Source: Verrucomicrobiia bacterium
GTDB lineage: Bacteria > Verrucomicrobiota > Verrucomicrobiia > Limisphaerales > UBA1319
Assembly: GCA_963664225.1 (NCBI GenBank)
Contig: OY760937.1
Coordinates: 5,696,001 to 5,760,000, forward strand
Length of the DNA: 64,000 nt
Reading direction: 5' to 3'
The position numbers were made by a program, and so were the translations under genes. Shown here one piece after another: positions 9,770 through 63,319 of the stretch. The notes beneath the pieces were generated by a model. It was not told the origin of the DNA. It did no database searches and worked only from the letters and a program-made list of their open reading frames with translations. Each line of letters begins with the position of its first letter. Within the stretch, counting starts at the first letter, position 1.

Positions 9770-9795
9770 GACGACCATTTGACAGGAGGGCAAAC

Positions 9796-9823
9796 CACCG
9801 CCCGGGGATGGCCTCGGGCGGTG
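9796..9823. terminator. GC-rich hairpin between convergent smc and DUF2961 genes
   Basis: CACCGCCCG...CGGGCGGTG inverted repeat. Confidence 0.5.
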
Positions 9824-9838
9824 ATGAATATTCTATTC

Positions 9839-11857: not shown

Positions 11858-11996
11858 AGGGTATATGGTTGAAGATTATTCGGCCGCACGATTCTGTCAA
11901 TAGAATGCTGCACCCACAAAACGATCGGAACCGTGCCCCTGCGAAAGCTTGACGTGGGAACCGATGCGAAAAACAACTGAAAATTGATAACGAGGA

Positions 11997-12086
11997 TGGC
12001 GGAAGGGACAGGAATCGAACCTGCGGTAGGGTTGCCCCTACTCCTGATTTCGAGTCAGGCGCCTTAGACCACTCAGCCACCCTTCC
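11997..12086 (-). tRNA. tRNA-Ser (anticodon CGA)
   Basis: Minus strand reads GGAAGGGTGGCTGAGTGGTCTAAGGCG-CCTGA-CT-CGA-AA-TCAGG, then a long variable arm, GGTTCGATTCC, and an encoded CCA end. Confidence 0.96.
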
Positions 12087-12442
12087 CGCCGTTTATTATC
12101 AATGACTTGCTACAGTCCGAATAATGTTCCATCGGCAAATTGACATTGCTTTTTGATGCCGTTTGCCTGACATCAGGCAAAGCAGAAGAAAAGGCTGGTT
12201 GGGCCATGACTTCCTACGCCAATCCGACTCGATAGCGACCGTCGTGCAAGTATTTCGCATGTCTTCGGGTCCGGGGCAAGCTCATAGTGCAATCCTTGAA
12301 AACTAATGTGATGGCTGCCCCCAATCTTCGGTCGTCGATTCAAAGACGGCTCTGCGTTAAAAGTTTGCAGAAACCAAGTGTCTCCTGTGAATCTTCCGAA
12401 CATTTAGTGTATTGGGAAATCTCGACTGCTGCCTCAAAATTA

Positions 12443-12492
12443 AAAAGAAAACCGGCCGGAGTCCTGGTGTTGCCATGGACTCGGACCGGTTT
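12443..12492 (-). terminator. Probable intrinsic terminator of typA
   Basis: AAACCGG..GAGTCC..GGACTC..CCGGTTT hairpin followed on the minus strand by TTTCTTTTT. Confidence 0.55.
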
Positions 12493-12536
12493 GAATAGAC
12501 TGAATTGGGATTCCCGCTGGAATCCGCAATGCAAGC

Positions 12537-14366: not shown

Positions 14367-14516
14367 ACAAATATCTCTCAATCGAGCCAGACATCTTGTT
14401 CAAATATAAATTATAAAGCAAGTTTTTGCGGAAAAAATCGGATGTCGCTTCAAAAAAAGGCTAAAATGAGGCAGATTTGTCCATTCCAAGCCATGGGTTT
14501 CTGCTCATGGATCAGC

Positions 14517-34311: not shown

Positions 34312-34511
34312 ACAAATGGCGGTGGAGCGGGGTCAAATAGGGTGGCGGGCATCTATTCGCTTGTGTTGCAATTATGTGAAGGTTTTTTCTTGAAAATCGC
34401 AACCGAAATCGCGATTGTTCCACGGTTACGCACATTTGTGGATATCACCGGTCACTTTTTGTCCAAACTGTTGGGTTAAAGTTGGTAACCATTGAGTTCT
34501 GTTTAATCATT

Positions 34512-40199: not shown

Positions 40200-40216
40200 A
40201 ATTGTTCCTCCGCGAT

Positions 40217-40256
40217 GCGCCCGGCCAGCATTAGGATGCTCCGGGCGCTTTTTATT
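40217..40256 (+). terminator. Intrinsic terminator
   Basis: GCGCCCGG..AGCAT..ATGCT-CCGGGCGC followed by TTTTT. Confidence 0.75.
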
Positions 40257-40478
40257 AAGCGTGATGATGGGTTCTGTAATTGGGAAGGTGCTTGCGTGTT
40301 TCTGGTTAAAAATGCGTGAAGAGCATCCTTCCCTGGTAACGATACTTGCCATAACAATGCGATTTGCTTTTACTGTCGGTCGTTCCAATGCAACGACGTT
40401 GAGGGTCGTAAATCGAATGCAAGCACCGTTTTGGATGGAATTTGAGAGTGCAGGGTTAAAAATCACAGATTTTATTGT

Positions 40479-42803
40479 ATGAGGTTGATGAAAAATGCGG
40501 CATTTGCGGCCTGGTTGGGAATATTGGCGTGCATGACGATTCATGCAGCGGCAGCGCCTGTATTTATAAATGAAGTGCTCGCCAGCAATGTCACTTATCC
40601 CGATGCCACAGGCAATACGCCCGACTGGGTCGAATTATACAATCCATCGACCAATGATGTGAATTTGGGGGGAATGAGCCTTTCGAACGATCCGATCCGG
40701 CCGCGGATGTGGGTTTTGCCTGAGGGTGCCATTGTGCGCGCAGGACGTTACCTCGTCATTTATTTTGACGGGAGCATGCCCGCGTCCTCACGCAATACAG
40801 GCTTCAGCCTAAGCGCCACGGGGGATGGAGTTTATTTTTACGATGCGAACAGCCAGTTGGTGGATTCTGTTGTCTTTGGAATTCAAATTCCTGATTATTC
40901 CATTGGACGTCTTCAAAATATTTCCAATCCCTGGCAATTGATGAGGCCCACCTTTGAAGCAGCCAACGAATCGGTGCCGATGGGAAGTCGCGCGTTGCTA
41001 CGGGTCAACGAATGGATGGCGGATCCTTCATCCGGGAAAAAGTGGTTCGAGCTTTATAATGGAGACACCATGCCTGTGGAAATGAGCGGGCTTTATCTAT
41101 CGAACAGCCTGAACAAAAATCCGTATAAGTTCAAAATACCGGCCTTGTCGTTTATTGGAACGGGATCGCAAGGTTATCAAAAGTTTCTTTCCGATGACAC
41201 CGCCTCAACCAGTCCTGATCGTGTTAATTTCAAGATTTCAAAATCGGGCGATGACATTGGAATATTCACCGAGTCCGGCGTGGCGATCAATGCGGTGACC
41301 TATGGCGCCCAGATCACGGATGTTTCCGAGGGACGATTGCCTGATGGCGCACCGAATATTGTCAAGTTTTACACCACACCCACTCCGAGCGCGAGCAACT
41401 ACCTGCCTTTGAATAATGTGGTGATCAACGAAATTCTGACGCACACCGATCCGCCGCTGCAGGATTCATTGGAACTGTTCAATACAACAGCAACGGATGT
41501 TCCCATCGGAGGCTGGTTTATCAGTGACAGTCCTTCGAATTTCAAGAAGTTCAAAATACCGGCGGGAACGGTCATCAAAGCGTTTGGTTTCCAGGTTTTC
41601 TACGAAGATCAGTTTACCAACACCGCGAGTCCCTTTAATTTCAATTCTTCGGAGGGGGATTCGGCCATACTTTCCGCCGTTGATTCCGTGGGGAACCTGA
41701 CAGGCTACCGCGCTGAAGTGAATTTCGGAGCGGCATTCAACGGTGTTTCCTTTGGGCGATATGTCAACAGCGCGGGAGCGATCCAATATCCGTCCCAAAA
41801 TGCTGTGACCCTCGGTTCCACAAATGCAGGCCCCCGCATGAGTCCGGTCGTCATCAATGAAGTCATGTTCAATCCACCAGCAGTGTTGAGCACCAACGAT
41901 AATACGCAGGACGAATATGTGGAATTGTTCAACATGACGAGTCAGCCAGCGCCACTTTATAATCCGTTGGAATCAACCAATGCATGGCGTATTCGAGGCG
42001 GTATTACTTATGATTTTCCCACGAATGTCACGATTCCTGCGGGAGGATATTTGCTTTTGGTCAATTTCGATCCCTCGACCAATGCGCCCGTCTTGGCCCT
42101 GTTCCGACAAAATTACGGTGTAAATACCAACATTCAATTATTTGGACCGTATCAGGGTAAACTGGGAAATTCAGGCGACTCCATCAAACTGGAATCACCG
42201 GATGCGGTGCAGGGCATTGGGCATATCAATGAAGGATTTGTGCCCTATGTCACAGTGGATTTGGCGGAATATTCGAGCGTGGGCCCATGGCCGACAGGGG
42301 CCAGCGCCAGTGGATGGTCCATCCAAAAAAAGAATCCTTTCCAATATGGTAATGATCCAACCAATTGGTTTGCCGGGGCGCCAACCGCGGGAAGTCTGAA
42401 TATCGGTGGAGCGGTGGACTTGGACGGTGATGGTCTTCCCAACGATTGGGAATTGGCTTATCAGTTTGATCCCATGAATCCAGCCGATGCCCGGCAGGAC
42501 GCTGACGCTGACGGGGTGTCGAATTTAAACGAGTATCTCTCCGGGACTGATCCGCGAAATAGTGCCAGCGCTTTGCGGCTTTCCGGTGTTGAACACAAAG
42601 CTGACGGTTTGCACATAACATTTGCAGGGATTGCCGGGCGCACCTATACGGTCCAGTTTTGCGATGGCATTATTGGGGGGACCTGGTCGGATCTTCAGAA
42701 GATTGGACCGCTGTCTGCGGCTCAGACGGTGGACATCACCGATCCTCTGGCGCCGCAATCTCAGGGACGTTATTACCGTGTGGTTTGCAGACTGGGGCCA
42801 TAA
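40479..42803 (+). CDS. Secreted lamin-tail-domain repeat protein, paralog of 31939-34311
   Basis: Same four-module layout. Shares SEGRLPDG, INE.L.HTDPPL, GFVPYV, YGNDP.NW, DGDG.P..WE and YYRV. Confidence 0.82.
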   Translation: MRLMKNAAFAAWLGILACMTIHAAAAPVFINEVLASNVTYPDATGNTPDWVELYNPSTNDVNLGGMSLSNDPIRPRMWVLPEGAIVRAGRYLVIYFDGSMPASSRNTGFSLSATGDGVYFYDANSQLVDSVVFGIQIPDYSIGRLQNISNPWQLMRPTFEAANESVPMGSRALLRVNEWMADPSSGKKWFELYNGDTMPVEMSGLYLSNSLNKNPYKFKIPALSFIGTGSQGYQKFLSDDTASTSPDRVNFKISKSGDDIGIFTESGVAINAVTYGAQITDVSEGRLPDGAPNIVKFYTTPTPSASNYLPLNNVVINEILTHTDPPLQDSLELFNTTATDVPIGGWFISDSPSNFKKFKIPAGTVIKAFGFQVFYEDQFTNTASPFNFNSSEGDSAILSAVDSVGNLTGYRAEVNFGAAFNGVSFGRYVNSAGAIQYPSQNAVTLGSTNAGPRMSPVVINEVMFNPPAVLSTNDNTQDEYVELFNMTSQPAPLYNPLESTNAWRIRGGITYDFPTNVTIPAGGYLLLVNFDPSTNAPVLALFRQNYGVNTNIQLFGPYQGKLGNSGDSIKLESPDAVQGIGHINEGFVPYVTVDLAEYSSVGPWPTGASASGWSIQKKNPFQYGNDPTNWFAGAPTAGSLNIGGAVDLDGDGLPNDWELAYQFDPMNPADARQDADADGVSNLNEYLSGTDPRNSASALRLSGVEHKADGLHITFAGIAGRTYTVQFCDGIIGGTWSDLQKIGPLSAAQTVDITDPLAPQSQGRYYRVVCRLGP

Positions 42804-46925: not shown

Positions 46926-48716
46926 ATGGATATCGCGCACATTAGAAATTTTTGCATTATTGCTCATATCGATCACGGCAAAACAACTTTGTCGGATCGA
47001 CTCCTTTTCCGCACAGGCACCATCACTGCGCGAGATATGAAGGAGCAATTACTCGATTCGATGGATCTGGAACAGGAACGCGGCATTACCATCAAGTCCC
47101 ATCCGGTCACCATGTCCTACACGGCAAGAAACGGGGAGACGTATGAGCTGAATCTCATCGACACCCCGGGACATGTGGACTTCACCTACGAAGTCTCGCG
47201 CAGCCTTAGTGCGTGTGAAGGGGCATTGCTCATTATCGATGCGGCGCAGGGAGTTGAGGCTCAGACCGTGGCCAATTTGCATTTGGCCATGAAGCGGAAT
47301 CTGGAAATCATACCCGTCATCAATAAAATTGATCTTCCTCACGCCAATGTGGCCCAAACCAAATTACAGTTGGAGGAGATTCTCTCGATACCAGCCGAAA
47401 ACGCGATCCTCGCCAGCGCGAAGGAAGGAATTGGCATCGAAGAGATATTGGAGGCAGTGGTGAATCGCATTCCGCCACCAAAACCCACTAACACGGGCAG
47501 TCTGCAGGCTCTGGGATTTGACTGCTTTTTCGACACTTTCAAGGGAGTGGTCAATTTGGTGCGCATTTTCAATGGAGAATTGAAAGCGGGCATGCATATC
47601 CAGCTTTACCATTCCAGGAAAACGGTTGAGGTCAAAGAAGTGGGCAGCTTCAATCCCAAGCCTTACGTGCGGGAAAAGCTCACCGTCGGCGAAACGGGAT
47701 ATTTTACAGCAAACATCAAGAGCCCGCTGGATGTGAAAATGGGGGATACACTCACAGATCCCCGCAATCCATCGCCACCGCTGGATGGTTTTAAGGAAAT
47801 CCAGCCAATGGTTTATAGCGGTATTTATCCGATTAATACCGCGGATTACGAGCGGCTGAAGACCAGCCTCTCGAAACTGCAGTTGAACGATCCTGCGTTT
47901 GTTTATCAGTCCGAGAGTTCAGTCGCGCTTGGCTTTGGTTTTCGTTGTGGCTTCCTTGGCTTGCTGCATTTGGAAATTGTGCAGGAACGGCTTCGCCGGG
48001 AATACAATATGGACATCATCGCCACTTATCCCAGCGTGGTCTATCGGGTGACCATGACCGGAGGCGATGTCAAAGAGATCGACAATCCGGCATTCATGCC
48101 CGAGCCCAATTATATCGAGAAGATTGAAGAGCCGATGGTCAAAGCATTCGTGATTTGTCCCAACGACAATATCGGCGACATGATGGCGTTAATCTCGGAG
48201 AAACGCGGTATCATCGCCCACACGGAAACATTGGATACGTTGCGTGTAATGCTCACCGCCAGCATTCCATTGAATGAAATCCTGATTGATTTTCATGATC
48301 GCATTAAAAGCATGACCCACGGTTATGGCTCAATGGATTATGAACTGGATGGCTACAAGGAAGATAACCTGGTGAAGTTGGAAATCCTGGTCAACACCGA
48401 GCCTGTCGATGCTTTTTCCTGCATTGTGCATCGTGAAAAAGCAGAGGGCAGGGGACGTGCCCTCTCAGCTAAACTGAAGGATGTCATTCCACAGCAACAG
48501 TTTGTTGTTGCAATTCAGGCGGCCATTGGGGGCAAAATCATCGCGCGGGAAACCGTGCGCGCCTACCGAAAAGACGTTACCGCCAAGTGCTACGGCGGCG
48601 ATGTATCCCGCAAACGCAAATTGCTGGAGAAACAAAAAGAAGGTAAAAAGCGGATGAAAGCCATTGGATCCGTGGATATTCCACAGGAAGCATTTATTGC
48701 GGTCCTTAAGGCATAA
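46926..48716 (+). CDS. lepA: Elongation factor 4
   Basis: IRNFCIIAHIDHGKTTL, GFRCGFLGLLH and KCYGGDVSRKRKLLEKQKEGK. Confidence 0.98.
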   Translation: MDIAHIRNFCIIAHIDHGKTTLSDRLLFRTGTITARDMKEQLLDSMDLEQERGITIKSHPVTMSYTARNGETYELNLIDTPGHVDFTYEVSRSLSACEGALLIIDAAQGVEAQTVANLHLAMKRNLEIIPVINKIDLPHANVAQTKLQLEEILSIPAENAILASAKEGIGIEEILEAVVNRIPPPKPTNTGSLQALGFDCFFDTFKGVVNLVRIFNGELKAGMHIQLYHSRKTVEVKEVGSFNPKPYVREKLTVGETGYFTANIKSPLDVKMGDTLTDPRNPSPPLDGFKEIQPMVYSGIYPINTADYERLKTSLSKLQLNDPAFVYQSESSVALGFGFRCGFLGLLHLEIVQERLRREYNMDIIATYPSVVYRVTMTGGDVKEIDNPAFMPEPNYIEKIEEPMVKAFVICPNDNIGDMMALISEKRGIIAHTETLDTLRVMLTASIPLNEILIDFHDRIKSMTHGYGSMDYELDGYKEDNLVKLEILVNTEPVDAFSCIVHREKAEGRGRALSAKLKDVIPQQQFVVAIQAAIGGKIIARETVRAYRKDVTAKCYGGDVSRKRKLLEKQKEGKKRMKAIGSVDIPQEAFIAVLKA

Positions 48717-48725
48717 GGTATTGAT

Positions 48726-49901
48726 ATGACATTGAGGTGGTTCTTTTCCAAAACGGTTCGCCAAACGTCCGAAATGGTTAACCAGGTGCGCAAACTTTTA
48801 TCCGCACAAATGGATATTCTTTCGCCTCAAGCCATCAAGAACATCACCGGAGCCTTGGATGATACCCGCAACGCCCTGAAATCTGGGGCTGATACGGAGA
48901 CTCTGAAAGCGAAGATGGCCGCTCTGGAGGAGATGGCCAATAAGTGGCTCAAACCGTATCCCAATCCAGCATGGCGCGAGAATGTCGAAGTCATCCTTGT
49001 TGCCGTGGCCATTGCATTGAGCATTCGGACGTTCTTCCTCCAGCCAATGAAGATTCCCACAGGTTCCATGCAACCAACCTTGTATGGAATCACTTACGAG
49101 AACCTTAAGGACGAGAAAGATGCAGTCATCCCCACAGGCGTCAATCGCTGGGTGGACTCCATTTTCAAAGGAACGTCTTATTATCGCTATACCGCCAGTG
49201 AGGACGGAGCATTTCGCCTCCTGGATGAGAATCCAGTCAATGTGTTGCCGTTAATCACAAAACAACGGTTTTCCGTTGGCAGCCAGATGTTTACTGCGTG
49301 GATGCCTGGGGATCAGCTCTTTCGCCGGGCTGGATTGGTCAACGGCCAGACCTTTCAAAAAGGTGAAGACATTCTCAATATGAAGGTCACCAGTGGCGAC
49401 CATCTTTTTGTAAACAGAGTGGTGTATAACTTTCGGCCACCAAAACGGGGTGAAATCGTCATTTTTGAGACGCGAGGAATCGATAATTTGCCTCAGGACA
49501 CCTATTACATTAAACGATTGGTGGCCATCGGAGGCGATCAGGTTCAAATCGGTGATGATCAACATCTTAGGATCAACGGTACGCGTCTGACCGCAGCAAC
49601 GCCGCATTTTGAAAATCTCTATACATTCGGACCGGATTATAAGGAAAATCACTATTTTGGCCACGTGAACCAAAGCGTTGGAAGTAAATTTGCGCGTGCT
49701 GGAACCATGATGGCGCCGAAGTTTCCGGATGGTAATGCGGAATTGACCGTGAGATCCAATCATTGCCTGGTCATGGGTGACAACACCATGAATAGCTACG
49801 ACTCACGCTACTGGGGCGATTTTTCACAAGAAAACATCATCGGTAGATCGAGCTTTGTGTACTGGCCAATCAGCGTTCGATTTGGATGGGGCCAGCAGTA
49901 A
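48726..49901 (+). CDS. lepB: Signal peptidase I
   Basis: IPTGSMQPTL (Ser), YIKRL (Lys) and MGDNTMNSYDSRYWG. Directly follows lepA. Confidence 0.94.
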   Translation: MTLRWFFSKTVRQTSEMVNQVRKLLSAQMDILSPQAIKNITGALDDTRNALKSGADTETLKAKMAALEEMANKWLKPYPNPAWRENVEVILVAVAIALSIRTFFLQPMKIPTGSMQPTLYGITYENLKDEKDAVIPTGVNRWVDSIFKGTSYYRYTASEDGAFRLLDENPVNVLPLITKQRFSVGSQMFTAWMPGDQLFRRAGLVNGQTFQKGEDILNMKVTSGDHLFVNRVVYNFRPPKRGEIVIFETRGIDNLPQDTYYIKRLVAIGGDQVQIGDDQHLRINGTRLTAATPHFENLYTFGPDYKENHYFGHVNQSVGSKFARAGTMMAPKFPDGNAELTVRSNHCLVMGDNTMNSYDSRYWGDFSQENIIGRSSFVYWPISVRFGWGQQ

Positions 49902-50326: not shown

Positions 50327-51943
50327 TCAGGGCTCTGGCTCTGCTAATCGTGCTTCCACAAATTCAGGTTGTGGCTCTGACCTAGGCGAAGCACAATTTG
50401 AATCGTTCTCTCTGTCATTTAAATCGTTAGAAGGTTTTCCACCCTCGTTTGAATTGGCCTTGGGATCTGATCGACGTTCCGCTTTAGGCGCCTTTACAAC
50501 GGAGGATTGCGGAGCGGTCTCAGCTATCTGCGTTTCGATCCTACCCTTACTTGGGTAAAACTCGTTAATAATTTTTCTGACCAAGGGCATCGTTACGGTG
50601 GTTTCAGACTGTTTTGCCTCATCGCGCGCTAGTTTTGCAATGTTTTCAAAGGTCTTGAGGAAGCTCTCGGCCGTGAGCGCACAAAAAGCGATATCGAGTT
50701 TATCTGCCGTATCAGCGATTTCAGGCAAATAAAACTCCACGAGATTAAGGAGGTCGGACTCAGGCAGTTTATCGGGCAGGTCGAACTCCACCCAACGGCC
50801 TTTGTGTTGTTGCATCGGATAGTGGGTCACGCGTTCAAATTTGGTGACGTCGCCGTGAGTTCCATCAAACCAATCTGGCGTAACTGCTATGACGACCGGC
50901 AGATTACGGTCGAAGAGTTGTTTCCGGACCCAATCGAGCCGGGGAGGGGAGGAATCCTTTTTAGGGGAACGCGGAATCAGAAAATGGCCCTCATCGAAGA
51001 TCAGGAAAAGTCCACTTTGCTTAACTACCTCAAAAATTTGCTGCCGTAGATTTTGGTACCCTGAGACGTGCGCTGTATGAATGCCAAGTGCTTCTGCGAC
51101 CGCGATCAAGAAGCCAAGCATGTCGTTAGAATCAGGTACAGTTATCAATCTAGCCCTCCCAGGCCACATTAAGGAATATGCTTCGAGACTTTCCGACTTT
51201 CCAAATCTGGATCCACCGCGCAACAATATCATCATGTTCGTGCGGAAGGCGATGCCGAGTATTCGGAAAACCTGCTTAGTCACGACCGTCATGACGACAC
51301 GACTCTGTTTGATCTTGTCAGCTCGGCAGTCCATGAATTTAAGGATGGCCTCAATTGCATTTTCAAAATACCACGGTCCATCGCAGTCCGGCAAATTGCT
51401 GTTGCTTTCAAATCCTTGGTCAAAATCCAAACATAATGCAGCCAGGTATTCTGGAAGTATTTCTAAGGCGACGTCTCTGCATGCGTTTCGAAAATATTCG
51501 AAGTCCATGTGGCTCGTTGCCATTTCAAGTAGTTCCCGGGGAAACAATGCCCAACTGCTCAGATGATCCATGGAGGCTTGATTATTAAAAAAGACCATTC
51601 CGGTGTCCGGATTGACGATCGACGGTCGCGCCCACTGCGCCATCTCGCTCCAGACTTGCATTCGCTCGTCAACGCCCCAATTCCGCTTGCCAAATTGGCG
51701 CATGCTAACAGTGCCGATTCTATCATAATAATCCCGAACTAAATCTGCGGAAAGCAATTTCAAACCGCCTGTCTCCATGGACATCCCTTGTATAGACCAG
51801 AGCAATTCAAGCAGACGCGGATTCGCCTGCATCTGCCTGTACAATTTTGGAGACTTGTAAGATCTTATCGCAGCAACTTTTTGGGCTAATTGTAATGGGT
51901 CGATGCTTGTGGCGACTGCAGTCTCTATCAGTAGATTTCGCAT
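50327..51943 (-). CDS. MuB/TnsC-like AAA+ ATPase with N-terminal extension
   Basis: Walker A GGSRFGKS and Walker B LIFDEGH. Downstream of the transposase. Confidence 0.72.
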   Translation of the reverse strand: MRNLLIETAVATSIDPLQLAQKVAAIRSYKSPKLYRQMQANPRLLELLWSIQGMSMETGGLKLLSADLVRDYYDRIGTVSMRQFGKRNWGVDERMQVWSEMAQWARPSIVNPDTGMVFFNNQASMDHLSSWALFPRELLEMATSHMDFEYFRNACRDVALEILPEYLAALCLDFDQGFESNSNLPDCDGPWYFENAIEAILKFMDCRADKIKQSRVVMTVVTKQVFRILGIAFRTNMMILLRGGSRFGKSESLEAYSLMWPGRARLITVPDSNDMLGFLIAVAEALGIHTAHVSGYQNLRQQIFEVVKQSGLFLIFDEGHFLIPRSPKKDSSPPRLDWVRKQLFDRNLPVVIAVTPDWFDGTHGDVTKFERVTHYPMQQHKGRWVEFDLPDKLPESDLLNLVEFYLPEIADTADKLDIAFCALTAESFLKTFENIAKLARDEAKQSETTVTMPLVRKIINEFYPSKGRIETQIAETAPQSSVVKAPKAERRSDPKANSNEGGKPSNDLNDRENDSNCASPRSEPQPEFVEARLAEPEP

Positions 51944-52055
51944 ACACCCAATCTTTAACGGGACGATTCACTCAAACTATTATTTCCGAAGTGGCATTAG
52001 AAGGTAACGATCGGGATAGATAGAACCTGTCAAACTGCAGATCGTTTGTGGTTCC

Positions 52056-54563
52056 TTAAGTGTTTTCCAAACCATGTTGCGATTCAGATTTCGTTTGGCG
52101 CAGTTTGTCAGCTTTCTTGCGCATGTCGATCGCTTGTTCTGCACGGGATGGGTACCGCTTAACAGTTTCTTGTGGAACATGTGCCTTCGTAGCTTCGGTT
52201 TGCAACTTGCGTAAGCGGTTATCGGCCTCCTTCTTTTCGTTATTGAATATTTCATTCTCTCGGTTGTGGAATTCCCCAAACTTCTTCTCTTCCTCAGTAT
52301 ATTCCGCGTCTCGGACAACAGTGGAAATTACCTCCGGTTTCAATTCGCTGAAGATTCCCTTTGCGTAAGCTCTGTGTGCTTTTTTAAGTTGTCTGATGGC
52401 ATCAAGCTGCTCTGGCAAAGCAGTCATCGCGGAGGCTTCAACCTCTTGCACAGAAAAGTATTCCTTGTGCTGCCTGTCATAAACCGTGAGTAATTCTGGT
52501 AGTTCGATATTGTAAAATGCCAAAACTGGTCTCCCGATAATTCGACCCGTGTGCCCGTTGTAATAGAGATGTGGAATTCCTCGAACCTTTATCAATATCC
52601 CCTCTTGCCGCACAGTGACGTATTTTCGGTGAGTGGAGAGAATGTAGCGAGCCTCATTAGGCAGCTTTTTGAGAGTGCTCGTCCGGAATTCATTAGCCCA
52701 TGCCTCAGATGGTGAATATCCATCGAGCATTTTACCGTTTTGGGGATCGCGGGCGAAATCATTGAGCACTGACGTAATTCTGCTTACCCAATCTGTCATG
52801 GTCGGGAATTGCATCACCGCATCAAGCTCCCCTCTGCGGGCTCTTGCAAGAAGGTCCTGCATCCTTTCATAACAATCGGTCTGTTCGTTAAAACCAACAA
52901 AACCAGGGATGGCCTTCATCTTGTTTTGCAGGATGAGTAACAGGCCCTCGATTGGTTTGGCGCGTGGTGTTGTTGCGTGGCGCACTTCAAGTTGCATTCC
53001 AACGCCACGAAGTCCACTTTCAGTTTCACGCCAGGGAACGGGCATCCCGCGGCGTCGATCACCGCTGACCAAGCGCGAGGCCCAGACTCCTTGCTCAAAA
53101 TAATAACCCATGCGCGGTAGTCCGACCTTATCGTGGACCTTCAGGGCAAGATTCCGAATGTGTTCGCCATTGTATTTTCCCGGAATCAGCAGGAACTCAA
53201 GGGGATAGCCGGTGCGCAGGTCGTTCATCAGAAGACATTCACCCCTCATAATTCCCCATCCTCCGTCTGCCAATCGCACCCGGAAATAGTGATTCCAAGT
53301 CACATCGTCCGCACAAAACCAATCTCCAGGTCTGACGCCAGACCAATCTCGCGGGGTATAGGGACCTCGCATCGTGGCCTCCCACGGGCCGTGCAGGAGT
53401 GGCAAGCACATCTCAACATCGGGAGTAATTTTATCCCTCACGGACAGCGGCACATTGCTCTTGTCATCGCGCGGAGCGAATCTATATCGCTTGCAGAATT
53501 CATCGCTCAATTCTCCGCGCTCGCGGAGTTCCCGGTACGCAAGCGATTCATTCCCGCTCAGTTCGATGGCACGGTTCCGGATCTTCTTGAGATCTGCTGT
53601 GAAATCTGATTTGCAGAAGTTACCGGACGTTAGGCAACGCCGATCCTGCAGAGCTTCCGGATTGCGATTGCCCTCTCGCCACTGAATAATTTTCTCTTCA
53701 AATCGCCGCCTGAGGCTCTTGGCTGAGCCGCACAGCGTGCCAGGCGGAAATGCTTTTGACAGGTAGCACAGCAAAGATGCCTTGATACGGTGCCGTTTGC
53801 GATTGCCTTTTGGCGAATCCGTGAGTGCATCGCTTAGTTTCTCATAGTGCCTGAATACGGCGCTCCACAAGTATTTCTTTTCCTCTGGTGTGGGTTTTTG
53901 ACGGTCCTCAGTCGACTCGATTATTTCATCGAGATCTCTATGAATGTACTCCATCTCACGAACGAGCCGCGACGACTTCTGGGTATAAAAAGCCCGATCG
54001 TCAAGGTATATCTCCGGTGCTATCCAATTTTCCGCCCCGCCATCCCGGTCGATTGAGCGATCGATCAACCGCCGCCAGTGTCGATTGGAAATTGTGTAAC
54101 CCATATGCTTTTGGAAATTCTCCAAGCCGAGTTGCTCAATCTGACTCGCGGGAGCGGTCGAGGCATACCAACCGTTTAATGTTGGTGCCAAGGCCTTCTG
54201 GAGTTTTAGCGCTTTCTCCCGCCAGAACGGTTGCAATTGGGCCCACGCCACTGGTGGAACCCACGGCTCTCTCGGCATGCTCGCAATGTATCGAATTCCA
54301 TCCTCATATTTGCGTTCTACCCCTCGACGCGTCACCCGCAATTGCCAGTCCAATGGAAGCGTTTGAAAGGCCCAAGCCGCTGTTTCCTTTCCTTGGACCG
54401 TGACATTTTTGGTTGGGACGACACGCTCCAAGCCGTAATAGACTGCGCGTCGGGTTATGCCTGTTGCGCGAGAAATCTGCACGACAGTGAACAAATTGTA
54501 GGCCTCAGCTGGTTCGCTCATTTTCTTTTTTGGACTGTGTATGGCCCCGATCCGGGCGTTCAT
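52056..54563 (-). CDS. MuA/TnsB-like DDE transposase
   Basis: N-terminal HTH (TVVQISRATGITRRAV), PGDWFCADD, DLRTGYP, PRAKPIEG, and a C-terminal TVRQEGI beta-barrel-like segment. Confidence 0.78.
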   Translation of the reverse strand: MNARIGAIHSPKKKMSEPAEAYNLFTVVQISRATGITRRAVYYGLERVVPTKNVTVQGKETAAWAFQTLPLDWQLRVTRRGVERKYEDGIRYIASMPREPWVPPVAWAQLQPFWREKALKLQKALAPTLNGWYASTAPASQIEQLGLENFQKHMGYTISNRHWRRLIDRSIDRDGGAENWIAPEIYLDDRAFYTQKSSRLVREMEYIHRDLDEIIESTEDRQKPTPEEKKYLWSAVFRHYEKLSDALTDSPKGNRKRHRIKASLLCYLSKAFPPGTLCGSAKSLRRRFEEKIIQWREGNRNPEALQDRRCLTSGNFCKSDFTADLKKIRNRAIELSGNESLAYRELRERGELSDEFCKRYRFAPRDDKSNVPLSVRDKITPDVEMCLPLLHGPWEATMRGPYTPRDWSGVRPGDWFCADDVTWNHYFRVRLADGGWGIMRGECLLMNDLRTGYPLEFLLIPGKYNGEHIRNLALKVHDKVGLPRMGYYFEQGVWASRLVSGDRRRGMPVPWRETESGLRGVGMQLEVRHATTPRAKPIEGLLLILQNKMKAIPGFVGFNEQTDCYERMQDLLARARRGELDAVMQFPTMTDWVSRITSVLNDFARDPQNGKMLDGYSPSEAWANEFRTSTLKKLPNEARYILSTHRKYVTVRQEGILIKVRGIPHLYYNGHTGRIIGRPVLAFYNIELPELLTVYDRQHKEYFSVQEVEASAMTALPEQLDAIRQLKKAHRAYAKGIFSELKPEVISTVVRDAEYTEEEKKFGEFHNRENEIFNNEKKEADNRLRKLQTEATKAHVPQETVKRYPSRAEQAIDMRKKADKLRQTKSESQHGLENT

Positions 54564-55048
54564 TTGATTCTAATTGAGCAGATTGGAGGGTCGGCGCGCG
54601 ATCCCCGATTTCTGCCGCGTCCAGACAAGATAATCCAATTCTTGTGTCATTTGGTATATGATGCACATAAAACGATGATGGGAGCCCACAACAGTTCCAG
54701 CAGTTCACCACGCGCTGGAAGAGGGTCGCGATGGATCGTTGGGTCGCAATCTTTTAAAGATTGCTGCATCTTTAAGTGGCTTTTTCTGGTTCATGATTAC
54801 ATTGGCAGCTTCCGTCGGCTGTTTGCCCTGCGATGAAATACGCCGTCGATTGAGGGGTGCCGGGTCAGCTTTGCTTGTATGGGCGCGACTGCGTGGAGCC
54901 GACATAAATCTCCGAAAACTGCGCAAATTGAGCCGCGCGGGAAATCATGCCACCGAGTTGGCGAATCCCCTTCGGGGCGTTTCGGCTTTGCTTCCATATG
55001 GCGGATGTGGTATGGTATAATGCAATAGATACAGCGAAATACAAAATA

Positions 55049-55441
55049 ATGCAAATTAAAAATGACTTTTTTCAAACGATTCGGCTGTTAAGGGTTCAGC
55101 GAGGGTTGTCGCAAGTCGAATTCGCTCGTTTTTTGGGCGTTACCCCGGCTGCGGTATGCAATTGGGAAAAGGGGCTCAGTAGCCCAGCCGAAAAACGGCT
55201 GGCGGCGATTGCTCAAAAATTGGGAGTGCCCGTCGAGTCGCTGCTTTCCATGTCGGTCGGTAACGGTCCGGGGAAAGTTCAGGAGATTCCACCGTGTTCT
55301 TCGCCGTTCCTGATTGCGTCAACCGTCGATGACCGGGGCAAGCGCCAAAAGCAGGCGCGCATGCTGGAGAAATTACTCACTCAGTTCACGGGCCTTGAAT
55401 TTCGGATCGATAATCCCGCGATTGGATCAGGGAAACGGTGA
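55049..55441 (+). CDS. XRE-family HTH repressor
   Basis: IRLLRVQRGLSQVEFARFLGVTPAAVCNWEKG...P...IAQKLGV. Divergent from the transposase. Confidence 0.85.
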   Translation: MQIKNDFFQTIRLLRVQRGLSQVEFARFLGVTPAAVCNWEKGLSSPAEKRLAAIAQKLGVPVESLLSMSVGNGPGKVQEIPPCSSPFLIASTVDDRGKRQKQARMLEKLLTQFTGLEFRIDNPAIGSGKR

Positions 55442-57788: not shown

Positions 57789-58625
57789 CTAAATTGTCCG
57801 TGGTTCTAATAATGTGAGAACACCTCGGCTCCGCAGGCGAATAGCCGATTCCATGAATATTTCGTCAAATTGGCTGCCTTCGGCGACACCTGTAAACCAG
57901 GCGCTGGCAACCGTTCCGTTCTGATGCACCCTTCCCAACGTCAGGGTGTTATCAAGCATCGCTAGGCCCGTGGCTGAATCAGCGGGTATCACTTCATTGG
58001 TCAACTTCTTAACCCATTGATACCCTCGTGACTTCAGTTCTGGGGAAATATCCCACCAGGGTTTGCCAGCATCGCGAAACATAACTATGGCACAGGGTGT
58101 TTTGCTTATGGCGGTGAAACGCAGAGCTGCACTCTGAATGGAAACGCTAAACGTGCTGGCAATATCGACTATGCCTCGCAGCCCAGGTGAAACCTCCGTC
58201 AGTGCTTTGCGGAATTCCTGGCCAGGCATCAGAAGATTTGCAGAGAAGAGATTTGCCTCCACCTCTATAGGACTGTCCGCTGGATGTTCCGTAAAGGAAA
58301 AATGCGGTGGCAGGCCTGCCAAGAGTGCATTGCGGTGTTCATCGATGAAAAGGTGGCCCAGTTCGTGGGCAACTGTAAAACGAGCCCGAGGAGAGTTACA
58401 GGGCTGTCCCCGGGTCGTGTTGCAGTATATGTGAAATTTGGAACTTCTATGTTCCAACAACCCGTCAAAGGCGTTTCCATAGTCGCCATAAGAGAGGGTT
58501 ACACCAGATGCATTGACAATTGCATCCAAAAAAACTTGACGTTCTCTGGAATGGGTTTGCCAAACGTCCTCTGCCAACTCCGAGATGAATATATGACGTT
58601 CCCGAGGTAGGTCAATAAGCGCCAT
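57789..58625 (-). CDS. ImmA/IrrE (CapP-like) zinc metallopeptidase
   Basis: RARFTVAHELGH, EVEANLFSANLLMP, FSVS..SAALR and a C-terminal GAF-like region. Start MALIDL overlaps the upstream stop. Confidence 0.9.
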   Translation of the reverse strand: MALIDLPRERHIFISELAEDVWQTHSRERQVFLDAIVNASGVTLSYGDYGNAFDGLLEHRSSKFHIYCNTTRGQPCNSPRARFTVAHELGHLFIDEHRNALLAGLPPHFSFTEHPADSPIEVEANLFSANLLMPGQEFRKALTEVSPGLRGIVDIASTFSVSIQSAALRFTAISKTPCAIVMFRDAGKPWWDISPELKSRGYQWVKKLTNEVIPADSATGLAMLDNTLTLGRVHQNGTVASAWFTGVAEGSQFDEIFMESAIRLRSRGVLTLLEPRTI

Positions 58626-59013
58626 TGTTGATTTGTTCCTTTGCCCTGGCCCGATCCGCATCCATACGCTTACGGATTTCCTCGGTAATTTCGCCGCCGT
58701 TCCTAGCGGCCATGGCGAGTTTTTCGAGATCCTGCTCAACTTGAAGTGAACTAATTTTAGAACCAATTCTCGTCGTGGTCGGAAATTCCACAATATTCTC
58801 CTCGCTCTGGCGCAGGAGTTGGCGAAACTTCTCGGTGTCCGGGGTTGGGACTCCATTCATGTCTATGCTAGCCTTCAGTGAGGCGACATCTTCCGTGATA
58901 CGCGGAAAGAGATAACCATCATCCCGAAGTGCAGCATACACAGCTGCTTCGAACTCAGCGTCCGAAAGCTCTTTCGGCTGTTCACTATTCGAGTGGGTCT
59001 TCATATGTTGCAT
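58612..59013 (-). CDS. Small hypothetical protein, putative anti-sigma and peptidase substrate
   Basis: 133 aa between the sigma factor and the peptidase, overlapping the peptidase start. Contains GYLFP.T..DV and LAMAARNG. Confidence 0.65.
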   Translation of the reverse strand: MQHMKTHSNSEQPKELSDAEFEAAVYAALRDDGYLFPRITEDVASLKASIDMNGVPTPDTEKFRQLLRQSEENIVEFPTTTRIGSKISSLQVEQDLEKLAMAARNGGEITEEIRKRMDADRARAKEQINNGAY

Positions 59014-59034
59014 TATGTTAAATTATTTATGTTA

Positions 59035-59745
59035 TTAAGCGTGTGTTTGGATGAATGCTTTAGCTTGGTCTCTAAGACGCTTGCGACGAACCCGAAGACT
59101 GGACTCGGTTAATCCGTATTCTCTACAAATGCCCTCACGGATATCGTCATCAATTACCGATTCCCCATTTTCGGGATCCCAGAACTCAGCTGTGACCGTC
59201 AGAATTTCCCGGTCCTTTGGAGACAAAGTTTCCAGGAATCTTAGAACCGCAGCTTTTCGGCTGGTCGGGACTTGCTCTGCCGTCGCCTGACGTTTCTCCT
59301 CTATATTTTCCAGCCACTCGGTGTCCTCGTCCGAGCACCGCACGGCTGGACGTCTATTTTCCGCACGCAGGCTGTCCAAAAACAGGTTTTTCATTATCCG
59401 GAACAACCAAGCCAGCACTTGTGCGGTGCTCTGGCTTGGATCGGTGCACACAAAATGTTCGGCCTCCCGGTAAGCCTTAAGAAACGCAGCGTTCACAAAA
59501 CTCTCTGCCGATTCCCCGAATGTCTCTTGGCGGTATTTGATGCACCAAGCCAGCAAAAAGCGGGCATGGCGCCGGTGTAGCTCTTCACAAGCCTTAAGGG
59601 CCAATTCCTCATCGGTGTCCTTAAATGCCATGTACGTGACCAGTCCGTCGTCAGACTCGCGCTCGAGTTCGGGGTGAGAGCAAGTCACCAATCCGGTGAC
59701 GGGTTCCGGTTCTTCCAATATGTTGTTTTGGGCGACGTCTTCCAT
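59035..59745 (-). CDS. ECF-like sigma-70 family factor
   Basis: Region 2-like ACEELHRRH...AFLKAY...AWLFRIMKNLFLDSLR. Region 4-like LETLSPKDREIL...ICREYGLTESSLRVRRKRL. Confidence 0.8.
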   Translation of the reverse strand: MEDVAQNNILEEPEPVTGLVTCSHPELERESDDGLVTYMAFKDTDEELALKACEELHRRHARFLLAWCIKYRQETFGESAESFVNAAFLKAYREAEHFVCTDPSQSTAQVLAWLFRIMKNLFLDSLRAENRRPAVRCSDEDTEWLENIEEKRQATAEQVPTSRKAAVLRFLETLSPKDREILTVTAEFWDPENGESVIDDDIREGICREYGLTESSLRVRRKRLRDQAKAFIQTHA

Positions 59746-59897
59746 CAAGATTATAACGTTTGGCCGTTACATTGTGCTTATATGGTCATTACTTCTTCTC
59801 TTATACGTCACCTCCTGAGCCATGAAACGCTAAATCGTTATGACGGTGAAGGAGGAGCAAAGAGCTTCCGAGACAACCTAACGAAAGACCAAATATT

Positions 59898-60281: not shown

Positions 60282-60671
60282 ATGCGCCGCGAATTTACTC
60301 TGCCGGAGGACGACGTTGAGCACCTAGATACGCTTGGCGTGAATTGGGAGACGCTCCGTGATCCCAGCGGGCAATGGCTTCTGCTCCATGGGTTTGCGTT
60401 TCCATCGGGCTACAATCACCCGAATGGGTCCGTTGCCATACAGATCCCGGGAAACTATCCGGTTTCTCCGCTGGACATGGCATATTTCTTTCCTCACCTT
60501 CAGCGTCTGGATGGGCAACCGCTCCGGCAGACAGAATGCATGATGCAGGTGGATGGCAAATCTTGGCAGCGATGGTCCCGACATTACACTTGGGTGCCTG
60601 GGCAGCACAACCTCGGCACTCACATCGTTCTAACGCGCCATTGGCTGGAGCAGGGCGTGGGGAGAGGATGA
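60282..60671 (+). CDS. Prokaryotic E2/UBC-fold protein (E2 family E type)
   Basis: LPEDD..L...WE, FPSGYN, IPGNYP..PLDMAYF.P and WQRWSRH..W.PG. Confidence 0.78.
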   Translation: MRREFTLPEDDVEHLDTLGVNWETLRDPSGQWLLLHGFAFPSGYNHPNGSVAIQIPGNYPVSPLDMAYFFPHLQRLDGQPLRQTECMMQVDGKSWQRWSRHYTWVPGQHNLGTHIVLTRHWLEQGVGRG

Positions 60672-62053
60672 AAACTCCCATGATGACTACCTTAAGAATG
60701 ACGGAGGAACAACGGTGTCAACTCCAGCGGCACCTTTTTCCCGGCGACGGTCAGGAAATGGTAGCACTCGCCCTGTGCGGTTCCAGTCTCGCGACTGACC
60801 GACAAGCGTACTGCGTCCATGAAATTATCGAAATTCCGAGGGATGCCTGCACTTTACGGACTGCCGTAACTGTTCAGTGGGATGTGCATGTCTTAATTCC
60901 GGTGCTGGAAAAGGCCCTGAAGCGGGGGTTGTGGGTGCTGAAAATTCATTCCCACCCGGGAAATTACGAGCGATTTTCTCCACAAGACGACCAAACGGAT
61001 ACAGATCTGGCGAAGGGAATCGGGTCTATTTTGGATCGTGAATCCTGCCTTATCAGCGCGTTTATGATGCCGGCAGGCAAGATTTATGGCCGCATAGTCA
61101 ACACAACTGCGGGCTTCACCGCAATTGATCAAATAATGGTGGTGGGTGACACGGTGTCTTTCATGCACGTGAATTTGCTTAATTTGGGGAATGACAAGGA
61201 TCTGCGCACCAGGCAGGCGTTCGGCGATGGAACAACCAATCTGCTGCGGTCGCTTTCGGTAGGCGTGGTTGGGTGTTCAGGGACGGGAAGCTGGGTCGTC
61301 GAACTTCTAGGAAGGTTGGGCGTTGGTCGGCTTATATTAGTGGATCCGGATACAATTGAGAAAAAGAACCTCAACCGGATTGTAAATTCGACCGCAAAAG
61401 ACCTCGATCGGCCCAAAGTGCACGTTTTGGCCGATTCAGTTCGGGCAGTGGGATTTGGAACCATCGTCGAAACTCACGCTAAAGAAATAGCTTGCGCCGG
61501 GGTCGTTAAGGCTCTGGCTTCTTGCGATTTCCTTTTTGGGTGCATGGATTCAGCTGATGGCCGGGAAACCTTAAACCGCATTGCGACCTATTACTTGCTC
61601 CCTTATGTGGATATTGGTGTGCGTTTGGATGCGGATGGACATGGCGGCGTTGAGCAAATATGCTGTGCCCTTCACTATCTTCTCCCAGGCGGCTCGAGTT
61701 TGTTATCTCGTGGTGTGATCACAGCGAAACAGGTTGAGGCGCAGTCGTTACAGCGCACCAACCCGGAACAATATGACTCCCGGCATAACGAGGGATACGT
61801 AAAAGGTGTGGCGGTGGACCGTCCAGCAGTAGTCAGTATCAATGGGTTTATCGCAACCCACGCTGTCAACGAGATGTTAGCGCGCCTGCACCCCTTCCGG
61901 CGGGATTCCAACGAGGAATTTCGTTATCAACTGTTCTCGCTCTGTGATGGCGCCTGGCTACGGCAGTCAGACGGTCCGCCCTGCCAATTTCTGTCCCGCT
62001 ATGTTGGACGTGGCGATGCTCAACCGCTGCTTGGAAATCCCGCATTATCATGA
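60668..62053 (+). CDS. JAB/MPN peptidase - ThiF/E1 adenylyltransferase fusion
   Basis: JAB motif E...KIHSHP...FSPQDD..D. E1 motifs VGVVGCSGTGS, LVDPD...KNLNR, K and FGCMD. The ATG at 60668 overlaps the E2 stop (ATGA). Confidence 0.88.
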   Translation: MKTPMMTTLRMTEEQRCQLQRHLFPGDGQEMVALALCGSSLATDRQAYCVHEIIEIPRDACTLRTAVTVQWDVHVLIPVLEKALKRGLWVLKIHSHPGNYERFSPQDDQTDTDLAKGIGSILDRESCLISAFMMPAGKIYGRIVNTTAGFTAIDQIMVVGDTVSFMHVNLLNLGNDKDLRTRQAFGDGTTNLLRSLSVGVVGCSGTGSWVVELLGRLGVGRLILVDPDTIEKKNLNRIVNSTAKDLDRPKVHVLADSVRAVGFGTIVETHAKEIACAGVVKALASCDFLFGCMDSADGRETLNRIATYYLLPYVDIGVRLDADGHGGVEQICCALHYLLPGGSSLLSRGVITAKQVEAQSLQRTNPEQYDSRHNEGYVKGVAVDRPAVVSINGFIATHAVNEMLARLHPFRRDSNEEFRYQLFSLCDGAWLRQSDGPPCQFLSRYVGRGDAQPLLGNPALS

Positions 62054-62665: not shown

Positions 62666-62729
62666 GTCCCCGGAGTTAAAGAATGGCAATTAACGGTTTT
62701 TCACAAAAGCATAAGTCTCTAATTATGAA
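62666..62729. repeat. Copy 2 of the ~60-bp degenerate direct repeat
   Basis: GTCCCCGGAGTTAAAGAATGGC...ATAAGTCTCTAATTATGAA. The first 22 bp match copy 1 at 20 positions. Confidence 0.65.
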
Positions 62730-63089
62730 CGGAATACAGATGACGGAAAGGTCATCAAACGTAACTGGGCAAAATGATTGGCGGTGACGAGCGTGAACTT
62801 CCCGCCAAACATTCGTTGCAATGCAATTTCCCGCCACGTTTTCAGGTTGATTTTGCTGCATCTTGCCCCTGCAAAGAAAGCGTGGCGGTGCTTAGATTTC
62901 GAATTCAGTTGATCGCTCTTGGCCAACAGGTCGGCTTTGGCACGCGGCAGCATCGAACGTTTGTCGGCTTCATTCCGGGATTTGATCGCCCATTTCGGCA
63001 CGCCGTATTTGAGCCAGTTGTTCTTCTGAAAGGAATTCAGCATCTGAATACCCGTCGACATACACCTGAAGAGGCTCACGGAGTTCAAT

Positions 63090-63319
63090 ACCACCACCAC
63101 ATGACTCCACAGACTGAAGGTTCTGGCCATCTTATCAACGTAGGCTTCCCGCGCTATTCTCGTGGAAACCAAAAACTCAGGAACGAAGTTGCAAATCTGC
63201 CCTAACAGATTCAATTTCGAACCGGCTGGAATGCTTTTGTTTTTTTTCACCCCTGCCGTGTGGCAGGTTAACTCAGAACGTTCCAGCCTTTTTCATTTAT
63301 TCCCTATGGGATGGCTGTG
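63090..63319 (-). pseudogene. IS4-family remnant: candidate left end plus transposase N-terminus (DUF4372-like)
   Basis: LLGQICNFVPEFLV..IARE..VDKMARTFSLWSHVV, after which the resemblance ends. Candidate end CACAGCCATCCCATA at 63319-63305. Confidence 0.55.

Follow-up and report, generated by a model that had tools for sequence, protein, structure and literature searches.

The 64,000-nucleotide stretch of Verrucomicrobiia DNA analysed here (the window; contig OY760937.1) contains three minus-strand genes, for a sigma factor, a small protein and a zinc metallopeptidase, which lie head-to-head with an operon encoding a ubiquitin-like protein (Ubl) and its E2-like and E1-like partners (Table 1). 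We consider it reasonably probable that these genes constitute a mobile Type I Bub cassette with a protease-gated sigma switch, in which the small protein would inhibit the sigma factor, the CapP-type peptidase would cleave the small protein, and the released sigma factor would drive both operons. The first-pass annotation of this DNA had already described the divergent three-gene set, which is confirmed, with small corrections of the start codons, by the open reading frames (ORFs), the Pfam matches and the 152-bp gap (59746-59897) across which the sigma and bubA genes diverge. It had also proposed that the peptidase releases a dedicated sigma factor by cleaving the small protein and so activates the Ubl operon, and this mechanism is now supported in part, by the predicted binding of the small protein to the sigma factor, the co-inheritance with the Ubl operon, a natural gene fusion, a conserved arginine motif and the intergenic DNA motifs. 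The Ubl operon is of the Type I Bub kind described in the literature, where its link to CapH+CapP has been reported as well.

The sigma ORF spans 59035-59748 if translation begins at TTG, or begins at 59745 with the ATG used by the called protein. The gene had been called ECF (extracytoplasmic function)-like, and this holds: the protein matched Pfam Sigma70_r2 (E 1.5e-7) and the NCBIfam sigma70-ECF model TIGR02937 (E 4e-12, across residues 53-230), while no equivalog model of NCBIfam reached its cut-off and region 4 alone was not reported by Pfam at E<=0.01. An N-terminal extension of about 45 residues is followed by region 2 (about 50-130) and region 4 (about 165-235), and, as in ECF (group IV) factors, the protein has regions 2 and 4 only and is of ECF size. 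In the sigma alignment (A2), W114, L115, I118, N121 and D125 and the segment S217-L225 are conserved; the five single residues are typical of core binding and promoter melting in ECF factors.

The proposed anti-sigma role of the small protein was assessed with a complex prediction, using our own alignments A2 for the sigma factor and A1 for the small protein. The pair reached an ipSAE of 0.85 in each of three runs, against 0.02 for the best of three controls, with a contact agreement of at least 68% and a predicted local distance difference test score (pLDDT) of the partner of at least 61, and thus passed the multimer check that the first-pass annotation had suggested for it. Of solved complexes, 116 of 157 attain this mark, and of mismatched pairs 2 of 215, which is only a rough guide here, as our own alignments were used. 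Residues 15-71 of the small protein (58801-58971) are predicted to contact sigma residues 47-120 (region 2) and 150-234 (region 4), and the interface takes in the conserved region-2 helix 109-120, the part of sigma factors that contacts the beta-prime coiled coil. By this prediction, the small protein sits between regions 2 and 4, in the classic anti-sigma arrangement, as expected of the co-transcribed cognate anti-sigma of an ECF factor. The model of the small protein by itself shows a chain of five helices with little order (mean pLDDT 58.7), which fits folding upon a partner. A profile search of PDB with A1 gave a best E of 0.11, and because the small protein has no sequence relative in PDB, the predicted complex is unlikely to be a simple recall of a solved pair.

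The longest ORF of the peptidase (57789-58856) comprises 355 codons, the first 77 of which run through the small gene; for this reason the internal ATG at 58625 was taken as the likely start of a protein of 278 residues. With this start, the beginning of the peptidase gene and the end of the small gene (stop codon, 58612-58614) overlap by 14 nt, and a gap of 21 nt separates the sigma gene from the small gene. The identification of a HELGH metallopeptidase of the IrrE/CapP kind stands, on matches to Pfam Peptidase_M78 (E 2.7e-12) and to PADLOC capP (E 3.5e-43, positions 5-239 of 242 in the profile), and the best solved relatives in a PDB search were CapP (7t5t, E 3.1e-9) and IrrE (3dte, E 7.9e-5). 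By the coverage of the capP profile, the likeness to CapP extends over the full length, that is, the peptidase domain, the helix-turn-helix (HTH)-like linker and the GAF domain. The HELGH segment occupies residues 87-91 (H87, E88 and H91; 58353-58367), and E121, which is aligned to the Glu in the IEAQAD segment of CapP 7t5t, is probably the third zinc ligand; the HExxH and downstream Glu of the zinc site in CapP/IrrE M78 regulators are found in the window peptidase.

The small protein is tied to this peptidase by the gene overlap, by co-inheritance in every locus seen whole, by a natural fusion and by a near-invariant Arg motif. The fusion protein, P0218 (408 residues), joins the small protein, including the motif, in frame to a capP-type peptidase (PADLOC capP, 1.8e-44) that is 35% identical to the window peptidase. 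Its model (pLDDT 81.6) has CapP 7t5t as the best structural match (TM-score by target 0.66), followed by IrrE and PprI. The motif belongs to the conserved C-terminal block of the family, E-N-L-A-x-A-A-R-(N/E)-G-..-I-..-E-....-M-..-D-R-..-A-E, and 128 of 149 representatives carry it in the form [LMF][AS]x[AV]A[RK]xG; the motif logo has Ala at P1 in all of the 116 sequences and Arg at P1' in 114 of 116. The conserved N-terminal block reads E..L..ALR..G.L.P.T.EE....E, to which the close clade adds GVPTPD..KF..LL (alignments A1 and A4).

The small gene (58612-59013) encodes 133 residues, or 130 if translation starts at M4, which is invariant in the 18 sequences of A1. No Pfam family matched the product at E<=0.01, and thus no Pfam HTH. 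The close family is narrow (38 clusters, mainly metagenomic); an exhaustive profile search found 381 representatives at E<=1e-3, nearly all of 100-130 residues and matched end to end. A Pfam HTH was absent from 79 of the 81 representatives scanned, the other two being the peptidase fusion P0218 and P0126, which has an XRE HTH in place of its C-terminal part. In the metagenomic proteins P0126 and P0229, the N-terminal sigma-binding-like block is kept and an XRE HTH (HTH_19, 9.6e-8) substitutes for the LAxAAR tail, a pattern that suggests modular swapping between CapH-type and anti-sigma-type partners. A search of the ESM Atlas gave no usable match for the small protein, tblastn of plasmids with the window small protein, P0105 and the sigma factor gave nothing relevant, and no match to A1 was found in the viral contigs scanned.

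In view of a weak match to the PADLOC capH model (E 2.9e-6), the small protein looks like a CapH derivative that has lost its HTH. The N-terminal XRE-type HTH with which CapH binds its promoter is not found in it by Pfam. The statement of the first-pass annotation that the module has no XRE repressor is right by Pfam but carries the caveat of this match, by which the small protein seems related to CapH and not an entirely new partner. The nearest gene for an XRE HTH protein (54947-55441) lies beyond the edge of the cassette, and 12 related loci contain no homologue of it. The CapP of Escherichia coli cleaves CapH at F82|R83, a site in the first helix of the C-terminal domain, and does not cut the R83A mutant (Lau et al., 2022 preprint). 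The conserved Arg in LAxAAR(N/E)G recalls this Arg-dependent CapP site.

The seven genes form one sharply bounded cassette of 4.6 kb. Nucleotide similarity of the window to related sequences begins at 57802 and ends at 62422, and none of the seven real proteins encoded in the flanks of the window has a homologue in the 12 related loci; for the latter reason, the sigma factor is the sole predicted sequence-specific DNA-binding protein that travels with the Bub operon. Nine of the loci compared came from metagenomes and, in one case, from the contigs of a metagenome-assembled genome. The sigma and small genes were adjacent in all nine, and the peptidase gene came next in eight, the contig of the ninth ending inside the small gene. 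Divergent Bub genes were present in six of them (five with the complete set, one truncated where its contig stops), and the remaining three contigs do not reach that side. This recurrence shows that the arrangement is not due to chance. Among 401 Verrucomicrobiota genomes searched with a profile, six encode the small protein, including the window's own. Six loci were fetched from other genomes, and in all of them the peptidase gene directly follows the small gene. All seven genes are present in L017-L020, and in L021 the triad adjoins a variant with a BubAB fusion. L022 (genome G168, 7239-14371) has a remote triad (250, 123 and 277 residues), after which the same strand encodes two small unknown proteins, a 352-residue ThiF protein and a serine recombinase, with SWIB and FRG genes upstream; its cargo includes no recognisable Bub operon. 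The flanks differ between loci and contain restriction enzymes, NERD/STAND proteins, DUF932, transposases and similar genes. Between L017-L020 and the window, identity is about 33% for the sigma factor, 37-42% for the small protein, 43-46% for the peptidase, 69-71% for BubA and 57-63% for BubB. The regulators thus diverge far faster than the Bub cargo, yet the DNA motif described below is kept.

The aligned intergenic sequences share little beyond two mutually inverted elements of 18-20 bp with the consensus TG(A/T)AACG-N6-CGTT(A/T)TG, each of which points at the gene it precedes. Both copies were found in 12 loci, including clades in which the sigma factor is just 33% identical to that of the window; the L017-L020 clade keeps the elements, and L021 and L022 hold degenerate forms. 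In the 5.78-Mb genome, TGWAACG-N6-CGTT occurs three times, two of them here, with about 0.7 occurrences expected by chance and none for the reversed control. The third copy (G000:C1:3957767-3957785) is intergenic, some 60 nt ahead of the closest ORF in its own orientation, a distance unlike those found here, and is probably due to chance. In 12 of 13 loci, the start codon of the sigma gene, ATG or GTG, is preceded at 12-13 nt by the C of CGTT, and an equal offset on the Bub side lands on a purine followed by (A)AGG, 40-49 nt ahead of bubA, in 11 loci. The first sigma codons are coding, because they vary at synonymous positions; if CGTT is the -10 element, the mRNA of the sigma operon would therefore be leaderless. 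We favour the view that the two copies are sigma-dependent promoters, because the sigma factor is the only predicted DNA-binding protein travelling with the cassette. Three further features of this region were noted. A TATAAT-like box between the motifs is present in the close clade and absent from L017-L020, and was rejected as a conserved part. A short GC stem seen by eye in the 5' untranslated region of bubA in most loci was only weakly recovered by RNAalifold (4 pairs, -0.64 kcal/mol), and no claim is made for it. Compared with its closest relatives, the window has about 28 extra bases between the motifs (59777-59822), with a second TATAAG box, which looks like a local duplication or insertion.

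The switch that we propose would work as follows. At rest, the small protein would inactivate the sigma factor, its N-terminal half (about residues 15-71) being wedged, by prediction, between regions 2 and 4, where it would cover the surfaces that bind core RNA polymerase. The C-terminal half would remain free and present the near-invariant motif as the recognition site for the CapP-type peptidase. By analogy with CapH, cleavage might occur just before the invariant Arg, between A103 and R104. The peptidase would be switched on by single-stranded DNA (ssDNA) from DNA damage or phage replication, as the analogy with E. coli CapP and Deinococcus IrrE/PprI suggests, and its cut would inactivate or destabilise the small protein. 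One may speculate that the ...LAMAA end created by the cut serves as a degron of the ClpXP type, as in RseA. The freed sigma factor could then direct RNA polymerase to two divergent promoters, each with one copy of the motif. One of these, for the sigma/adaptor/peptidase operon with its apparently leaderless mRNA, would give positive feedback, and the other would drive bubA-E. The outcome would be a damage switch of the CapH+CapP type rewired from de-repression to activation.

The case for this switch, which we regard as plausible, is made wholly from prediction and conservation, and several findings weigh against it. Some of them concern the DNA motif. TGAAAC or TGTAAC and CGT are hallmarks of the -35 and -10 elements of ECF promoters, and sigma-70-family holoenzymes require 16-17 nt between the two. 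The AAC and CGT submotifs of an autoregulated ECF promoter are conserved here, but TGWAAC and CGTT are separated by 7 nt rather than 16-17 nt, a -24/-12-like geometry, and the motif is not a canonical ECF promoter. With a spacer of 17 nt, the position facing TGWAAC reads xTGA(A/T)G, that is, GTGAAG on the Bub side (exact in 5 loci) and xTGATG, containing the start codon, on the sigma side. To our knowledge, the -24/-12 geometry is otherwise found only with sigma-54. A host sigma-54 promoter was considered and rejected, as the GG and GC doublets are absent and no activator ATPase is encoded. It is rather unlikely that the sigma factor is a sigma-70-family member with a compact promoter, recognising TGWAACG and CGTT one helical turn apart at about -24/-12 with a leaderless mRNA for its own operon, and controlled by an anti-sigma derived from CapH and destroyed by a protease that senses ssDNA. 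If so, this would be a new promoter architecture for ECF-like sigma factors, together with a new class of soluble, protease-addressed anti-sigma.

The AACG-N6-CGTT core is, furthermore, an imperfect palindrome resembling the operator of a dimeric repressor, and this also counts against a sigma-dependent promoter. The small protein could still be a CapH-type repressor that dimerises through its C-terminal helices and binds both sites until CapP relieves the repression, with the sigma factor as a downstream amplifier. The core of both conserved sites is indeed an inverted repeat with half-sites one helical turn apart, the capH model matches one relative (P0141) at 7.6e-9 over the full length, and its match to the window protein was noted above. 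The C-terminal motif with its invariant Arg recalls the cleavage helix of CapH, and the Corbett laboratory tables, in the portion accessible, class such proteins as CapH (Verrucomicrobium sp. 3C row). Nevertheless, we think a repressor unlikely: a Pfam HTH is lacking in the window protein and in nearly all of the relatives scanned, the lone small protein models poorly, the complex prediction puts its N-terminal half with confidence between regions 2 and 4 of the sigma factor, and the sites keep asymmetric ends (TG... gene-distal), each facing its own gene, for which a symmetric operator has no need. The 7-nt spacing and the dyad symmetry would equally suit the sigma-like protein acting as a free DNA-binding regulator, for example with two region-4 HTHs on the half-sites, blocked by the small protein until the peptidase removes it; a dimeric binder would fit them better than a holoenzyme does, and the cassette encodes no other DNA-binding protein. 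However, region 2 retains the five residues listed above, TIGR02937 spans both regions, and we know of no precedent for a sigma-like protein as a free dimeric regulator, so that we give this explanation very little probability.

Other points against the protease-gated sigma switch concern the two protein partners. The C-terminal motif (residues 99-121), with the putative cleavage site, lies outside the predicted sigma interface, and because of this, release of the sigma factor would need a further step. The window CapP has, by its sequence, no Cys between H91 and E121 and hence no cysteine-switch loop; this loop occurs in only 33% of CapPs and hence is not a defining feature. The capH likeness is weak and inconsistent, with matches at E<=0.01 in 4 of 7 other representatives tested, and the model is unspecific, with matches in 13 of 14 control genomes; a search with it among 101 relatives yielded mostly generic XRE proteins. 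Comparison of the family by hhalign with one canonical HTH-containing CapH-like protein, taken from an HTH+peptidase pair (L031), gave a probability of 0.25% and an E of 0.24, and as this is not significant, homology of the C-terminal motif to the C-terminal domain of CapH is unproven. Finally, the gene neighbourhoods of the family were seen for Verrucomicrobiota and close metagenome relatives only. The position of the motif would also suit a real sigma/anti-sigma pair beside a peptidase whose substrate or signal is a different one (for example, a repressor of the host or a component of the Bub system), the anti-sigma being released otherwise; so would the plasmid locus L049, where a Pfam-supported sigma factor and a partner stand by a Bub operon without a peptidase. 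Against this stand the overlap of the genes, their co-occurrence in all loci seen whole, the fusion and the near-invariant Arg, and we hold this possibility to be decidedly improbable.

The protease-gated sigma switch has to be seen beside the known systems. The window genes resemble CapH+CapP (Lau et al., 2022; relatives DdrO/IrrE and ImmR/ImmA) in having a full-length CapP-family peptidase with an overlapping small partner gene immediately upstream, in the divergence of this pair from a defence-type operon, and in a partner with a C-terminal helical motif and a conserved Arg. They differ in that no HTH is detectable in the partner, whose predicted target is the sigma factor encoded beside it instead of DNA, in the logic, which would be activation by a released sigma factor and not de-repression, and in the missing cysteine-switch loop. 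The switch is thus a variation on the CapH+CapP-type controller rather than a new kind of system.

Among ECF systems, RseA-sigmaE and RsiW-sigmaW are pairs of sigma and anti-sigma freed by regulated proteolysis. Like them, the window has a group-IV-like sigma factor co-transcribed with a partner that is predicted to lie between regions 2 and 4, release is proposed to come about by proteolysis of this partner, and the sigma factor probably activates its own operon. Unlike them, the partner is soluble, with no transmembrane segment, zinc-binding anti-sigma motif or known anti-sigma sequence likeness, the protease is a cytoplasmic M78/IrrE-type enzyme of the same operon, and the candidate promoter is -24/-12-like.

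The cargo is of a known kind. By Pfam, the Type I Bub gene set is complete (Multi_ubiq Ubl, Prok-E2_E E2, JAB-E1 fusion and DUF6527 protein), although the Prok-JAB match in BubCD falls below the Pfam cut-off (20.3 bits against 25), the other three components being above theirs. The operon type was defined by Ye et al. (2024 preprint; here and below, its accessible sections), who also report the DUF6527 family, to which BubE belongs, as a Ser-His protease. The window operon has the same gene set as other Type I Bub operons (6E/DUF6527; Ye et al., 2024/2026; Gong et al., 2025) and the sub-type with separate Ubl and E2 of Verrucomicrobium sp. 3C in the accessible part of Table S1; the operon itself is identical in kind, and the difference lies in the adjoining regulator, which includes a sigma gene not listed in that part of the table. 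CapK+CapS (EMBO J, 2026) is likewise a Bub-associated, DNA-damage-responsive pair made from sigma-control parts (an anti-sigma kinase and a STAS antagonist); there, CapS itself is a DNA-binding repressor, no sigma factor is involved, and the switch is phosphorylation, not proteolysis.

Parts of this association have been recorded before. Ye et al. (2024 preprint) counted CapH+CapP with 168 of 544 Bub operons, and Lau et al. (2022 preprint) mention in passing, in the sections accessible, 24 cyclic oligonucleotide-based antiphage signalling systems (CBASS) with capH and capP "alongside a predicted sigma70-family sigma factor"; the latter also describe activation of E. coli CapP by ssDNA and cleavage of its adjacent partner. 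In the accessible part of Table S1 of Ye et al., there is no entry "sigma", but the row of Verrucomicrobium sp. 3C skips one gene number between the Ubl and the CapP/CapH pair, and a gap of exactly one number at this place occurs in 16 of the 36 rows that list both regulators; this is a lead only, as the skipped genes are unseen. A search of full-text literature, the reach of which did not include the table of 24 systems by Lau et al., found no paper that treats a CapH-like partner as an anti-sigma or describes the HTH-less family; the only paper joining CapH, CapP and "anti-sigma" was the CapK/CapS work, with its different mechanism. CapH+CapP beside Bub operons and a sigma factor beside capH/capP are therefore already known, and within this search no description of the anti-sigma reading was found.

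CapH+CapP, CapW and CapK+CapS are the known damage-responsive controllers of bacterial immune and stress operons, and each works through relief of repression. A dedicated sigma factor freed by a protease would, if the proposal is true, give an all-or-none, self-amplifying response, and would free the cargo operon from reliance on promoters of the host, an advantage for a cassette moving among genomes. It would also define a function for a Pfam-less family of 381 representative clusters and offer a compact, portable and orthogonal sigma/anti-sigma/protease switch for engineering. For Bub operons, it provides a handle on when they turn on.

Table 1. Genes, protein motif and intergenic motif copies of the cassette, with positions in the window
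Feature	Position	Strand	Basis or remark
CapP/IrrE-type Zn metallopeptidase, 278 residues	57789..58625	-	Pfam, PADLOC and PDB matches
CapH-like adaptor / putative anti-sigma, 133 residues	58612..59013	-	alignments A1 and A4, predicted complex
LAMAARNG motif of the small protein, residues 99-106	58696..58719	-	R104 at 58702-58704
ECF-like sigma-70 family factor, 236 residues	59035..59745	-	Pfam Sigma70_r2, TIGR02937, alignment A2
Motif copy toward sigma, TGTAACG-GCCAAA-CGTTAT	59753..59771	-	C of CGTT at 59758, 13 nt before A of sigma ATG at 59745
Motif copy toward Bub operon, TGAAACG-CTAAAT-CGTTAT	59823..59841	+	13-nt offset is A59849, 49 nt before BubA ATG
BubA, ubiquitin-like protein (Multi_ubiq), 126 residues	59898..60278	+	Pfam PF14452 4.4e-12
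BubB, E2-like (Prok-E2_E), 129 residues	60282..60671	+	Pfam PF14462 4.1e-33
BubCD, JAB peptidase-ThiF/E1 adenylyltransferase fusion, 461 residues, ATG 60668	60668..62053	+	Pfam ThiF 1.4e-27, Prok-JAB 5.2e-4, PADLOC E1-E2 models
BubE, DUF6527 protein, 124 residues	62050..62424	+	Pfam PF20137 1e-19

Several plasmid-borne Bub operons have other regulators beside them. In L049 (Abditibacteriota plasmid AP024153.1, 2556-3775), a different Bub operon is divergent from genes for a sigma factor of 200 residues (Sigma70_r2, 6.3e-10) and a protein of 204 residues, followed by a PcrA helicase, with no M78 peptidase; Bub operons may have come under sigma-type control on more than one occasion. L048 (Mesorhizobium plasmid NZ_AP023255.1, 1688-4194) has three Pfam-less genes (197, 131 and 478 residues) divergent from its Bub operon, and the 197-residue product is sigma-like by eye. 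In the intergenic region of L048 (4195-4325), GCTGTC-N15-CGTCAGCAT occurs twice, in inverted orientation, as a pair of ECF-like promoters with canonical spacing that face each operon. By the Bub operon of L052 (Pontibacter actiniarum plasmid NZ_CP021236.1, 2132-3928), hypothetical proteins of 200 and 140 residues, which the profiles of the window sigma factor and small protein do not detect, precede an ImmA/IrrE peptidase (M78, 6.6e-16), and umuDC adjoins.

In the window, the cassette stands within an accessory stretch that starts past lepA and a signal peptidase gene (46926-49901). This stretch (50327-55441 and 62723-63250) encodes an AAA_22 protein of 538 residues, a Pfam-less protein of 835 residues and the XRE HTH protein of 164 residues, with a DUF4372 transposase-like fragment on the far side of the cassette; it may be a Mu/Tn7-like element, and none of its genes accompanies the cassette elsewhere. 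Further away (34482-42803), the window encodes two very large secreted-type proteins (Lamin-tail, CotH, PA14 and Fn3-associated domains), of a kind that is common in the phylum and unrelated to the cassette.

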